Shown: positions 48,847 through 62,132 of the stretch, one piece after another
How the letters are laid out: every line of letters begins with the position of its first letter
Position numbering within the stretch: position 1 is the first letter of the stretch
Origin: Escherichia phage UGJNEcP1
Strand: one strand, 5' to 3'
Length of the DNA stretch: 64,000 nucleotides
Sequence record: OV754623
Translations under genes and position numbers: made by a program
Notes under the pieces: model-generated
Seen by the model: only the letters and a program-made list of their open reading frames with translations
Told to the model about the DNA's origin: nothing
The model's database searches: none

Positions 48847-49479
48847 TCACAGTACGTTAGTTACAAGAGTAATGATTTCTTTGGACACATTAGGGAAGTC
48901 AATGTAAGTATATTTACCACCGATCTTAATCTTAACATCATTTTCAAGAGAAGTAAACAGCTTTGATTCAGTTTCTGACATGTTGTATGCAAAGATTCTA
49001 AGAGCGCCATCTCGTCGAATTTCAATTTGGCGAATGCCTAGAACTCGTTTAGCGAATCGAACTTCTAAGTTACTACGGTTTTCACCAATTTCTTTAACTT
49101 CAACTTTATCTTTAATATTTTCAAAAACAAAGTTTGCTAATTCATGCATTTCAGGAGTAACTCCACGTGCTTTTCTAGTGTTACGTTTCTGAAGAAGTTC
49201 TGGAGCATTTTCTTGGGCAAAGAGGTCTGCAGCTTTTTGGATAATATCCATTGCTTCGCCTGTTGCTATAAGTCCATCACCAGATTTTTCGACTAAACCT
49301 TTCTTAATCAATACACCAATGTTAGAGTTAACAACCGATGCATTGTATTCAGCTTCCAGAGCTTCACGGACATTAGCAGCAGTGGTGAAGTTGTTCTTAA
49401 TGATATAAACCATTATTGCAGCAGTTTTTTCATTCAGAGCGTTTTCAGAAGCTTTGATGATGTAAGTAACTTTAGACAT
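48847..49479 (-). CDS. motA: middle-promoter transcription activator MotA
   Basis: ORF 48847..49539 trimmed to Met 21 (MSKVTYIIKAS...), 210 aa versus T4 MotA 211 aa; early-type promoter upstream. Confidence 0.85.
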   Translation of the reverse strand: MSKVTYIIKASENALNEKTAAIMVYIIKNNFTTAANVREALEAEYNASVVNSNIGVLIKKGLVEKSGDGLIATGEAMDIIQKAADLFAQENAPELLQKRNTRKARGVTPEMHELANFVFENIKDKVEVKEIGENRSNLEVRFAKRVLGIRQIEIRRDGALRIFAYNMSETESKLFTSLENDVKIKIGGKYTYIDFPNVSKEIITLVTNVL

Positions 49480-49547
49480 TTTATTTCTCCAATTTGGTTG
49501 TTTTGTTTTGATATGTCTATAATACCATGTTTGAAGCAAAAGTAAAC
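49474..49547 (-). repeat. promoter-leader cassette, copy 1 (motA)
   Basis: 74 nt, about 93 percent identical to 49795..49868. Confidence 0.7.
49519..49547 (-). promoter_or_regulatory. T4 early-type promoter (GTTTAC-N17-TATTAT) for motA
   Basis: Spacer includes a TGCTTCA MotA-box-like motif. Confidence 0.55.
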
Positions 49548-49584
49548 TTTATTTTGGGCTCTTTTTCAAAAGCCCTGGTAAAAT

Positions 49585-49800
49585 TTACAAACTCATTTCT
49601 TTAATAAGGCTAATAAGTTTTGCCTTTTTAGAACGAAGCTTTTCTAAATGATGCCCATTTGAACCGCGAACCACTAAAGAATTGATTTCAACTTCTAAGA
49701 AATTTAATTCTTCAACAAGTGCTTTACGGAGAGCATTCATACCAGGTTTAACTTTACCGAAACGAGTAGTTGTGTTTTGAGTTAATTTCATTTTAGACAT
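49585..49800 (-). CDS. hypothetical small protein expressed from a duplicated motA promoter-leader
   Basis: 71-aa ORF; its upstream 74 nt (promoter, leader, SD, first codons MSK) is a near copy of the motA upstream region. Confidence 0.5.
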   Translation of the reverse strand: MSKMKLTQNTTTRFGKVKPGMNALRKALVEELNFLEVEINSLVVRGSNGHHLEKLRSKKAKLISLIKEMSL

Positions 49801-49868
49801 TTTATTTCTCCAATTTGGCTGTTTTGTTTTGATAGGTTTATAATATCATGTTTGAAGCAAAAGTAAAC
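49795..49868 (-). repeat. promoter-leader cassette, copy 2 (upstream small ORF)
   Basis: 74 nt, about 93 percent identical to 49474..49547; includes -35, -10, leader, SD and the first codons. Confidence 0.7.
49840..49868 (-). promoter_or_regulatory. T4 early-type promoter (GTTTAC-N17-TATTAT), duplicate of the motA promoter
   Basis: Near-identical copy 321 nt upstream of the motA promoter. Confidence 0.55.
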
Positions 49869-49896
49869 TGTTTTCGTGAGAAAAAAATGCACAAAA

Positions 49897-49912
49897 GGGA
49901 GCTTCGGCTCCC
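49897..49912 (-). terminator. intrinsic terminator after gene 52 (GGGAGC-CGAA-GCUCCC plus U-run)
   Basis: Hairpin followed by TTTTGTG on the minus strand, upstream of the duplicated promoter. Confidence 0.55.
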
Positions 49913-49988
49913 TAATCATGTTTGTCTAACCAATACAGCCAAATCACTAGTGCAGCTATTGCACCGAGAAATCCTAAGGCTAGGGCAC

Positions 49989-51314
49989 TCAAAGTGCCTC
50001 CAAGTCTTTAGTGTACTCTGTCACAACATCAGTAGACTTCCAATACTCGTTTTCTTCTTTCTTAGCTTTAGCTTCTTCTGCTAGTTTACGTGCTTCGTCG
50101 GAAGTGATATGGAAGATGTTAAGACCTACCAGTTTATCGACATGTTCTTTATACATTTCGATTTGTGCTAGCTCTTCAGTCAAAGCTTTACGAGTCTTGC
50201 CTTGAATCACAATTTCACCGGCAATAACTTTTTTGATGAAGTGTGCCTTAGCAAAAGCAAGTTTAAATGCTTTTTCAGATTCAAGGATTTTGTTGTCAAT
50301 ACGTTTCTGAACGTAAGTCTTACGGACTTCAACAAAATCTTTGATTAAGTCCACTACGTTATCGTAGACCGCTAATTTACCCTTTTCATTAATCACTGTG
50401 ATGTTTTGTGAACGACGTTCGATGAGACTAAAATCTTTCATGATTTTTTCGTGACGTAGCTCTTCATCATCAGGAAGCGAGTACTCTTTACGGAACTTCA
50501 CCTTAAACCCAAAGCCGTGTTCACCACAATCATCTTCCCATGAGATTAGACCTTTGTCTTCCAACGGGTCAAGAACCTTACTCACATACGTTTCACGGTC
50601 GAATTTATATGGGATTTCAGTTATCTGCATTTGAGTGCGAGATGTGAACTTATATGTTCCGTGAATCTCATAACGCCCATCAACTTCATGTACTTCACCA
50701 CGGAATTCCGGGAATTCAACTTTTGGCTTAGTGACATTTTTACCTTGAAGAGCTTGTAATACAGCCTTTTTAACTGATTTAAAACTATGAGGCAGAATAT
50801 TTGTTGCGTAACCGGTTGCAATACCAGAGACGCCATTCAAAAGAACTGTCGGAATAATAGGAAGATAGAATTTTGGTGGAACGTGTTCTTTATCTTCATG
50901 AGCTGGAGCGTATTCAGTATCTTTATAGACATTATAGAAATTTTTACTTACACGAGCAAAAATATAACGAGATGCTGCAGCTTTTTGGACTGTTCTAGAA
51001 CCAAAGTTGCCCTGGCCGTCTAACAGTGGATAGTTGTTGTTCCATGTGTTAGCCATCAATGCACCTGCATCTTGTGCAGAAGATTCGCCATGATGATAAC
51101 CTAAATCTGCAACACCTCCTGCAATTGACGCAAGTTTATGAAATTTTTCTTTATTACCACGAGCCAAATCTAATGCCCGATGAACAACAAAACGTTGAAC
51201 CGGCTTAAATCCATCAATCATGTTTGGGATTGCACGGTTTTCAACGGTGTACATCGCATATGCTAAGGCTTCGTTATCAATAATACTTTTTAGATTACGA
51301 GAATTCAATTGCAT
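49989..51314 (-). CDS. 52: DNA topoisomerase II medium subunit gp52
   Basis: 441 aa (T4 gp52 442 aa); GyrA-like N-terminus; near-identical to T4 as recalled. Confidence 0.9.
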   Translation of the reverse strand: MQLNSRNLKSIIDNEALAYAMYTVENRAIPNMIDGFKPVQRFVVHRALDLARGNKEKFHKLASIAGGVADLGYHHGESSAQDAGALMANTWNNNYPLLDGQGNFGSRTVQKAAASRYIFARVSKNFYNVYKDTEYAPAHEDKEHVPPKFYLPIIPTVLLNGVSGIATGYATNILPHSFKSVKKAVLQALQGKNVTKPKVEFPEFRGEVHEVDGRYEIHGTYKFTSRTQMQITEIPYKFDRETYVSKVLDPLEDKGLISWEDDCGEHGFGFKVKFRKEYSLPDDEELRHEKIMKDFSLIERRSQNITVINEKGKLAVYDNVVDLIKDFVEVRKTYVQKRIDNKILESEKAFKLAFAKAHFIKKVIAGEIVIQGKTRKALTEELAQIEMYKEHVDKLVGLNIFHITSDEARKLAEEAKAKKEENEYWKSTDVVTEYTKDLEAL

Positions 51315-61550: not shown

Positions 61551-61578
61551 AATATTCTCCTCTTGTTTTGATAGGTCT

Positions 61579-61608
61579 ATAGTATCATAGACCATAGTTG
61601 TTGTACAT
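61579..61608 (-). promoter_or_regulatory. possible early-type promoter (weak -35, TACTAT -10)
   Basis: Conserved leader TATAGACCTATCAAAACAAGAGGAG; -35 deviates from GTTTAC. Confidence 0.3.
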
Positions 61609-62132
61609 CATTTTAGCAAAATAAAATCAACTTGTTCTGCCAATGAACGTCTGAACATTAATTGACAACTTCCAAGGATGAAATCAGGTGCTTCATAGAC
61701 CGCGATGTAGTATCCTTTAGCTTTCAAGAGTTCAACATCCACCTGGTCATCAAACCATGCATAGACCGCGTCAACACTTTCAAATCCAAAATAGAACTCT
61801 TGAGCCCAATCTTCGCTCAATTCAAATGTGTGCTCAATTCTATGGTATCTTAAGGTATTTTGTTCAAGGAGTTTGTCTTCATTTACTGTAGGACGATTAG
61901 GGACATTATAGTTGTCGCCATGATGGTAGAAGTTACCTGAGAGTATTCCATGCTTATCAAGGAACTCCCATGTTTCTTCAGAGTTGTCGGTGCCCGACCA
62001 ACCGTATGGCGAACGAGGTTCTTTATTCCAAGAGGTTTCCCAAATTCTGACGGCTTTACCGTCTTCAATAGCAATTCCTGGTAATGATTCACGTTGAGTA
62101 CAAAAACTACGTTCTACTCGGTAAACTAACAT
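61608..62132 (-). CDS. hypothetical protein
   Basis: 174-aa ORF; early-type promoter and GAGGAG SD upstream. Confidence 0.5.
   Translation of the reverse strand: MLVYRVERSFCTQRESLPGIAIEDGKAVRIWETSWNKEPRSPYGWSGTDNSEETWEFLDKHGILSGNFYHHGDNYNVPNRPTVNEDKLLEQNTLRYHRIEHTFELSEDWAQEFYFGFESVDAVYAWFDDQVDVELLKAKGYYIAVYEAPDFILGSCQLMFRRSLAEQVDFILLK

Follow-up and report, generated by a model that had tools for sequence, protein, structure and literature searches.

In a 64,000-nucleotide (nt) stretch of the genome of Escherichia phage UGJNEcP1 (sequence record OV754623), hereafter the window, the region between gene 52 and motA holds two near-identical copies of a promoter-leader-start element, which precede motA and a small gene for a protein of 71 amino acids (aa), respectively. 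The reading that we favour, with a probability of about three in four, is that these copies are a pair of cassettes of the promoter-early stem-loop (PeSL) type around an accessory early gene, and that the locus has been shaped by homologous recombination and gene conversion. PeSLs are composite modules of a stem-loop, an early promoter, a Shine-Dalgarno (SD) sequence and a start codon that have been described in T4-type phages (Arbiol et al. 2010, PMC2839356; Comeau et al. 2014, PMC4122927). They adjoin variable small open reading frames (ORFs) and mediate insertions, deletions and replacements (PMC2839356, PMC4122927), and in the T4/PST type the stem-loop lies immediately upstream of a TTTACW-N17-TAYWAT promoter (PMC4122927). 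PeSL exchange yields excised mini-circles whose junction lies between the -10 element and the ATG (PMC2839356).

A repeat search of the window revealed a single direct-repeat family, consisting of two 83-nt members at 49471-49553 and 49792-49874 that are 93% identical and offset by 321 nt. About 3e-26 such pairs are expected by chance in a 64-kb window of the same composition. The preliminary description of this DNA had reported near-identical 74-nt promoter-leader-start cassettes for motA and an extra 71-aa gene, and the repeat search bears this out, with 4 mismatches over those 74 nt (94.6% identity). The locus region is 100% identical to GenBank record OV877511 (Escherichia phage UGJNEcP2, Mosigvirus, RB69 group), and about 150 other records match it at 95-98% identity. 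Given the perfect match to OV877511 and the recurrence of the layout in 76 independent phage records, the two-copy arrangement is not an assembly artefact. All features and genes of the gene 52-motA region are on the minus strand, and along the direction of transcription the order is gene 52, a 26-codon ORF, a hairpin, copy 2, the 71-codon ORF, a GAAA stem-loop, copy 1 and motA:

49989..51314, minus strand: gene 52 (topoisomerase II medium subunit), the upstream neighbour (ORF list; DNA topoisomerase II in the OV877511 annotation)
49881..49913, minus strand: probable intrinsic terminator of gene 52, formed by a G+C-rich hairpin and the U-rich tail behind it (fold, terminator scan, annotation of the ATK47 record)
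49792..49874, minus strand: repeat copy 2, the early promoter/leader/start cassette of the 71-aa gene (repeat search, promoter signals)
Signals of copy 2, minus strand: -35 GTTTAC 49868..49863; TGn 49848..49846; -10 TATTAT 49845..49840; off-register MotA-box-like TGCTTCA 49859..49853; GGAGAAATAAA (SD and RegB-like site) 49811..49801; ATGTCTAAA 49800..49792
49585..49800, minus strand: 71-aa accessory early gene, PHROG 6200 (PHROG, tblastn, ratio of nonsynonymous to synonymous substitution rates [dN/dS], AlphaFold2)
49556..49575, minus strand: stem-loop GGGCUUUU-GAAA-AAGAGCCC, directly 5' of the motA promoter (fold, compensatory changes)
49471..49553, minus strand: repeat copy 1, the early promoter/leader/start cassette of motA (repeat search, promoter signals)
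Signals of copy 1, minus strand: -35 49547..49542; -10 49524..49519; TGCTTCA 49538..49532; GGAGAAATAAA 49490..49480; ATGTCTAAA 49479..49471
48847..49479, minus strand: motA, activator of middle transcription (OV877511 annotation; 99.5% aa identity to RB69 MotA)

Each copy contains a GTTTAC element, a 17-nt spacer TTTTGCTTCAAACATG(A/G), a TATTAT element extended by TGn, a leader of about 35 nt, and the SD sequence GGAG followed after 7 nt by the ATG, all inside the repeat. The terminal segment ATGTCTAAA reads ATG TCT AAA in both; copy 1 leads into motA (48847-49479, MSKVTYII...) and copy 2 into the 71-aa ORF (49585-49800, MSKMKLTQ...). RNA folding gave no structure for either leader (-0.6 and -0.8 kcal/mol, z about 0). 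In the upstream cassette, the stem-loop is that of the probable gene 52 terminator, (A)GGGAGC-CGAA-GCTCCC(U), which spans 49913..49896 and has a U-rich tail (-14.6 kcal/mol, z -3.1); in the downstream cassette it is the one at 49575..49556, which has an 8-base-pair (bp) stem and a GAAA loop (-13.2 kcal/mol, z -3.8). The ATK47 record annotates the former as a Rho-independent terminator; our terminator scan flagged it on the plus strand only, because the longest stem leaves 4, not 5, T in the minus-strand tail. The Dhakavirus counterpart of the downstream stem-loop, GAGCTCTT-GAAA-AAGAGCTC, has compensatory changes at two stem positions, and in the IMG/VR locus L062 it comes after a different ORF. 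A search of Rfam with 49300-50100 yielded just one sub-threshold CrcZ fragment, on the terminator hairpin.

At the sequence level, the gene 52-motA locus shows every trait by which PeSLs are recognized. Both copies have a sigma-70-like early promoter and end at their 3' side in an SD sequence and a start codon, and predicted folds place a hairpin just upstream of each promoter. Related copies lie next to variable small ORFs, although their density in Mosigvirus is modest, and close relatives differ by insertions, deletions and replacements with breakpoints in the cassettes, as seen from a hybrid single copy in ten ORF-less relatives and from alternative ORFs in the same slot.

Comparison of relatives provides most of the evidence for recombination. 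A 631-nt query spanning the locus was covered in full by 76 records, which have the two-copy layout, and a second class of records was about 94-96% identical over 62-63% of the query, matching in two pieces over about 307 nt of the subject. Setting the 76 against a Mosigvirus-level total of about 153 records, about half of the Mosigvirus records, RB69 included, are without one repeat unit and the 71-aa ORF. Searching IMG/VR with MotA returned only 2 loci, and GenBank phage records were then taken individually. One copy and no ORF were found in RB69, F2, S143_2, RPN187, ESh27, O157 typing phage 6 (O157tp6), 348Ecol098PP, two IMG/VR contigs and the Dhakavirus QL01; in these ten fetched relatives, gene 52 is followed by a single promoter and motA, and the intergenic distance is 320-321 nt less.

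The single copies are hybrids. In a typical two-copy Mosigvirus, the upstream copy has the gene 52 terminator flank, an ATGT or ACGT spacer and leader A (AAAACAAAACAACCAAATT), and the downstream copy has the stem-loop flank, a TTTT spacer and leader B (AAAACAAATACTAATT). Alignment of all copies revealed at least three hybrid types among the single-copy phages, namely ATGT with leader A, ATAT with leader B and TTTT with leader A, the last being that of F2. In most of these phages the upstream copy is joined to motA (ATGT with leader A), which needs a crossover in the common 22 nt TTGGAGAAATAAAATGTCTAAA; the RB69 hybrid (ATAT with leader B) needs one between spacer and leader. In neighbour-joining trees of the 3' end of gene 52 and of motA, carriers and non-carriers interleave in both genera. 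Taken together, the hybrid breakpoints and the interleaved trees show that the state of the locus has changed repeatedly, always by exchange within the repeats.

The two copies also show concerted evolution, lineage by lineage. In JS98 and in VR5 they are identical over about 41 nt, in JS98 from the -35 element through the start region, and those of VR5 have a private TTAT substitution in common. Dhakavirus copies share TTCTGCTTTA and TACTAT, and Mosigvirus copies share TGCTTCA and TATTAT. The small gene of Dhakavirus has a leader of its own (GGAGACAC...) and starts ATG AAT AAG (MNK), and that of Mosigvirus has the motA-type TTGGAGAAATAAAATGTCTAAA and starts MSK. In the window phage leader A is present in both copies, the downstream one included. 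The near-identity over 74-83 nt is thus due to the acquisition of leader A by the downstream copy, as the copies of most relatives differ in the leader. These patterns indicate that the repeat is kept up and extended by gene conversion, which here reaches into coding sequence: non-reciprocal exchange keeps the copies alike within each lineage, and in the window phage the converted tract runs through the leader into codons 2-3, so that the protein starts MSK like MotA and not MNK.

Based on these data, we propose that the 71-aa gene forms a one-gene cassette between two composite regulatory modules of the same family. In each module, a predicted stem-loop precedes an early sigma-70 promoter of the T4 type, which is followed by an unstructured leader, the SD sequence GGAG and the first codons. 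As the comparison of relatives shows, the repeats serve as substrates of homologous recombination; a crossover between them deletes the gene and leaves one hybrid promoter, as in RB69, F2, S143_2, QL01 and others, and recombination with equivalent modules elsewhere brings different small ORFs into the slot between gene 52 and motA.

The signals in the cassettes suggest how the two genes are expressed. T4-type early promoters consist of a UP-like A-rich flank, a -35 element, TGn and a -10 element (PMC2988021), and the promoter elements of both copies are those of this type; the GTTTAC-N17-TATTAT arrangement with TGn also fits the T4/PST PeSL consensus TTTACW-N17-TAYWAT (PMC4122927). Given the terminator upstream, both genes are expected to be transcribed as monocistronic units of the immediate-early class. 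Each module would fire right after infection with unmodified host RNA polymerase, and the 71-aa protein would be made in parallel with MotA. In T4, the motA mRNA is cut in its SD sequence by the endoribonuclease RegB, which confines MotA synthesis to the first minutes (PMC2988021), and the target consensus of RegB with S1 is GGAGRAYARAA in single-stranded form (PMC1702504). Both leaders read GGAGAAAUAAA, matching 9 of the 11 positions, and are unstructured. A RegB 77% identical to that of T4 (E 2e-92) is encoded at 122890-123348 of OV877511; a search for the gene inside the 64-kb window gave no match, and it lies elsewhere in the genome. The RegB of RB69 is reportedly active (PMC3014915, PMC1702504). 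The two mRNAs, with the same GGAG and A-rich ribosome-binding site, would probably be inactivated together by RegB minutes later. Taken together, the early promoters, the RegB-like sites and the encoded RegB suggest that the 71-aa gene is probably switched on and off together with motA. On the opposite strand, a consensus scan found an antisense promoter-like site, TTGGCT-18-TATAAT, at 49815-49844 (plus strand; 10 of 12 matches); it arises because the -10 region of copy 2 is near-palindromic, and such sites are no more frequent than in shuffled sequence.

The preliminary description had also pointed to a MotA-box-like TGCTTCA in the spacer. The motif is indeed there, TTTTGCTTCA fitting the MotA box consensus in both copies, but it is out of register for activation by MotA: it ends 7 bp from TATTAT, and a perfect -35 element is present. 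The MotA box, (a/t)(a/t)(a/t)TGCTTtA, stands 12±1 bp upstream of the -10 element in place of a -35 element (PMC2988021), and MotA-dependent promoters of RB69 have the same box geometry (PMC1524935). Among 13 pairs of TGCTTYA and a -10 element in the window, eight, each on the transcribed strand, are 11-13 bp apart, and a 7-bp distance occurs solely in these two copies; no alternative TAnnnT lies at 11-13 bp from the TGCTTCA box. Like the MotA-dependent middle promoters of T4, the copies have a TGCTT(C/T)A core with T/A before it, together with TGn and an excellent -10 element, whereas the 7-bp spacing and the consensus -35 element give them early-promoter geometry. We therefore rejected the interpretation of the copies as middle promoters.

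A related alternative, which we consider unlikely, is that the motif is nevertheless a functional MotA site, making the promoters dual early/middle ones or providing an operator for shut-off by MotA with AsiA-modified polymerase. In its favour, the motA promoters of Mosigvirus, Dhakavirus, Klebsiella phage Marfa and one contig with a T4-type MotA (L039) keep TGCTT(C/T)A in their spacers, although sigma-70 spacers normally vary freely; the motif matches the core of the MotA box, and several early genes are over-expressed in T4 motA- infections (PMC2988021). However, in addition to the spacing, the motA promoter of T4 itself lacks the motif, MotA alone binds DNA weakly (PMC2988021), and sister promoters of the cassette family have CCTTTAAAC where these have GCTTTAAAC, which makes shared ancestry a likelier cause of the conservation than a binding site. 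The boldest version, to which we give low odds, is that the motif, placed 5 bp off the activating position, is the operator by which MotA and the AsiA-remodelled polymerase switch off MotA's own early promoter. If true, the twin cassette would put the 71-aa gene under the same negative feedback as motA, and a second, repressive mode of a sigma-appropriation activator, invisible to work on T4, would come to light.

The same spacer harbours a structural variant in other phages. In many relatives (among L002 and L010-L018) it contains a 5-bp palindrome that can form a hairpin, CATGT-GCTTCAA-ACATG; ATK47 and ECCR664 have a compensatory double change, CACGT...ACGTG, and ESh27 has the G·T intermediate. 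The hairpin is absent from both window copies (49525-49541 and 49846-49862), which have TTTT there and do not fold. RB49-type PeSLs likewise carry a stem-loop between the -35 and -10 elements (PMC2839356).

The cassette is not confined to the motA locus, and members of its family precede many unrelated small genes in genomes of Mosigvirus, Dhakavirus and Tequatrovirus. A motif spanning the -10 element and the initial transcribed segment, TAYTATAGACCTATCAAA, was found in 48 IMG/VR stretches before many different genes; contigs of the Dhakavirus type have several occurrences per genome. The slot between gene 52 and motA holds a 73-aa protein of phrog_13302 in L043 (1107-1328) and a 75-aa protein of phrog_10955 in L062 (624-851), both Dhakavirus-type loci from IMG/VR, and is empty in QL01 and L069. 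In the Tequatrovirus JoYop (L022, 1201-1290), a near-identical cassette, GTTTAC TTTTGTTTTAAACATGT TATTAT AGACCTATCAAAACAAA...GGAG...ATGTCTAAAGT, precedes a gene for an unrelated 60-aa protein (phrog_37915), which lies between goF and the spackle gene, and the ATGTCTAAAGT of this cassette encodes MSKV, as in MotA. A 66-aa paralogue of the 71-aa protein (hhalign 94.6%, about 35% identity; PHROG 6200, E 1e-35) came to light while cassette copies were being read, not from homologue searches with the 71-aa protein. The paralogue is present in 145 phage records, at different loci in different genera: in the Tequatrovirus Aplg8 it lies, unannotated, between nrdC.11 and nrdC.10, and in OV877511 (129902-130102; L071, 2501-2701), outside the window, it stands behind a terminator, a GTTTAC/TACTAT early promoter and a similar leader. 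Among the T-even proteins of PHROG 6200 (JS98 orf253; the Aplg8 66-aa ORF), the 66-aa branch shares an RFGK-K-G motif and a helical hairpin with the 71-aa protein but is only about 35% identical to it and occupies a different locus.

Two further observations concern the family. A third, partial relative lies in the window at 61563-61620 (minus strand), before another gene; it reads TGTACA-N17-TACTAT AGACCTATCAAAACAAGAGGAG...ATG and shares only the -10 element and the initial transcribed segment (match 61563-61581). In addition, L039 (IMGVR_UViG_2974787500) combines a T4-type MotA (SNDVL...) with a promoter cassette of the Dhakavirus type and retains part of the upstream stem-loop flank, suggesting that promoter modules are exchanged independently of the gene served.

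The preliminary description had spoken of a duplicated motA promoter, and its anatomy stands; its implied origin does not, as the copies are members of a dispersed family of PeSL-like cassettes and owe their high identity to gene conversion. If the motA promoter region had simply been duplicated in tandem on the spot, the intervening sequence becoming or being captured as an ORF with no mobile cassette family involved, this would explain why the copies are adjacent, direct and 93% identical into the first three codons of motA. Such a local duplication is nonetheless very unlikely, and the sequences disfavour it: a paralogue stands behind its own similar promoter and leader elsewhere in the genome and in 145 records, unrelated ORFs fill the same slot in other phages, and near-identical cassettes drive unrelated genes at other loci. 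Moreover, in most relatives the copies differ in upstream flank, spacer and leader allele, suggesting that the long identity in the window phage is secondary and results from conversion.

The 71-aa protein matches PHROG 6200, a family of unknown function, over its full length (residues 1-71 of 71, E 1.1e-39). By tblastn, the gene is present in 93 phage records, 75 of them at ≥95% identity (Mosigvirus type) and 17 at 72-77% identity, these being Dhakavirus (JS98, VR5, IME08, Bp7 and others); in JS98, VR5 and ABTNLsp5 the homologue occupies the same position between gene 52 and motA. Against the Dhakavirus homologues, dN/dS is 0.15-0.22 with dS of about 1.2-1.5 (saturated), and 48 of the 71 residues are invariant. 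The adjacent motA has diverged similarly (dS about 1.0-1.1, 69% aa identity), and the simplest reading is therefore that the gene was at the site before Mosigvirus and Dhakavirus split. A word-indexed search found no relative of the protein below 72% identity, and the only additions of an exhaustive profile search, two repeat proteins (P0009 and P0010), were spurious. AlphaFold2, run with a shallow alignment, predicted that residues 1-22 are a basic, disordered N-terminus and that residues 23-44 and 50-70 form a helical hairpin, at a mean predicted local distance difference test (pLDDT) score of 76. The protein has no Pfam domain, and Foldseek matched the model to generic helical hairpins only in the PDB (best E 0.6). 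A weak likeness to ribosomal protein L29, dismissed as insignificant when it was first noticed, can be rejected, since there is no Pfam L29 match at E≤10 and hhalign against E. coli L29 gives a probability of 0.8% over 10 columns.

Absence of the ORF from close relatives had been proposed as a test of its reality. It is indeed absent from about half of the Mosigvirus records, but at a dN/dS of 0.15-0.22 this shows a dispensable gene at a recombinogenic site and not a spurious ORF. On this evidence the 71-aa ORF can be taken as a real gene and a dispensable one; our best guess about its role, and purely a guess, is a dispensable early host-interaction factor. That the upstream copy is a decaying relic and the ORF unexpressed or non-functional, as its absence from about half of the close relatives, its frameshift in ECCR664, its lack of annotation in ATK47 and the failure of Pfam, profile and Foldseek searches to turn up a domain or function might suggest, is extremely improbable, given purifying selection over two genera, an intact -35 element, TGn, -10 element, SD sequence and spacing in all carriers examined, and a terminator upstream that makes a promoter of its own necessary. 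In the 134-kb 'complete genome' record of ECCR664 (L018), motA as well as the 71-aa gene looks frameshifted, probably through sequence errors.

Several points weigh against a cassette pair of PeSL type. Promoter activity, timing and RegB cleavage are inferred from the sequence and from the T4 and RB69 literature, and a literature search found no transcriptome or start-site data for any Mosigvirus. The RegB-like site departs from the consensus at positions 7 and 8. The downstream stem-loop (49556..49575) is without a U-tract and so may not terminate transcription as the stem-loops of RB49 PeSLs do. Only two full-length copies are present in the 64-kb window, the family being much denser in Dhakavirus than in Mosigvirus. 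Finally, because these phages recombine freely, the trees do not prove whether a given event was a loss or a gain.

The junction downstream of gene 52 varies in its own right. The loop of the terminator hairpin (49896-49913) is CGAA in the window phage, RB69 and S143_2 and the inverted TTCG in F2, HX01, ATK47, ESh27 and others, with a constant stem; this loop-inversion polymorphism is of the kind produced by intrastrand template switching. Just upstream, on the minus strand at 49912-49992, a hydrophobic ORF of 26 codons (LSALALGFLGAIAALVIWLYWLDKHD) that lacks an annotation and starts with TTG overlaps the stop codon of gene 52; it is intact, with conservative changes only, in all 15 Mosigvirus-type loci examined. 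Its position is filled by an unrelated membrane ORF of 34 aa in Dhakavirus and by the 49-aa motA.1 in T4. A place for a tiny membrane peptide after gene 52 is thus conserved, whereas the sequence is not.

The locus illustrates cleanly, and in natural isolates, how small early genes are gained, lost and exchanged among T4-type phages. Its allelic series is unusually complete, with carriers of both copies, one-copy hybrids of at least three kinds, other occupants of the slot and a paralogue behind a sister cassette. It could serve as a simple test locus for PeSL recombination in the widely used RB69-like phages. Its alleles also show that recombination at such cassettes is able to alter the opening codons of a gene and to link an accessory gene with the expression programme of the core regulator motA. 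For annotators, the 71-aa gene, which some records miss (that of ATK47 leaves it unannotated), is real.

As the preliminary description had indicated, T4 is without the 71-aa gene near motA. T4 has a single copy of the motA promoter, with a spacer (AACCAAAGCATACTGTGG) and a leader unrelated in sequence, and between gene 52 and this promoter lies the 49-aa membrane ORF motA.1 in place of the 71-aa gene. The two systems are alike in that a terminator is followed by a GTTTAC/TGn/-10 early promoter, a leader of similar length, a GGAG SD sequence with an A-rich tract behind it, and ATGTCTAAAGT, and a RegB orthologue is found in the window phage too. For this locus, the relevant comparison is with RB69-like and JS98-like phages rather than with T4.

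The closest known system is the PeSL itself, and the locus reveals no new kind of system. PeSL shuffling has been published for RB49/phi1, T4/PST and KVP40/nt-1 (PMC2839356, PMC4122927); the gene 52-motA locus and Mosigvirus/Dhakavirus are absent from the published examples, JS98 being cited only for PeSL-like sequences near gene 43. The locus also differs from these examples in that one cassette serves the essential core regulator motA and not another ORFan, in that the conversion tract reaches coding sequence, and in that the downstream stem-loop has no U-tract. Mini-circles were detected in the published system, and the likeness found here is one of sequence. That likeness extends to the composition of the module, the stem-loop just 5' of the promoter, the small ORFs of unknown function that the copies flank, and the indel and replacement breakpoints in cassettes between close relatives. 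The crossover that forms PeSL mini-circles, between the -10 element and the ATG, falls in the same segment as that implied by the hybrid single copies. The shuffling mechanism is known, and what is new is its probable occurrence at the gene 52-motA locus and in Mosigvirus and Dhakavirus.

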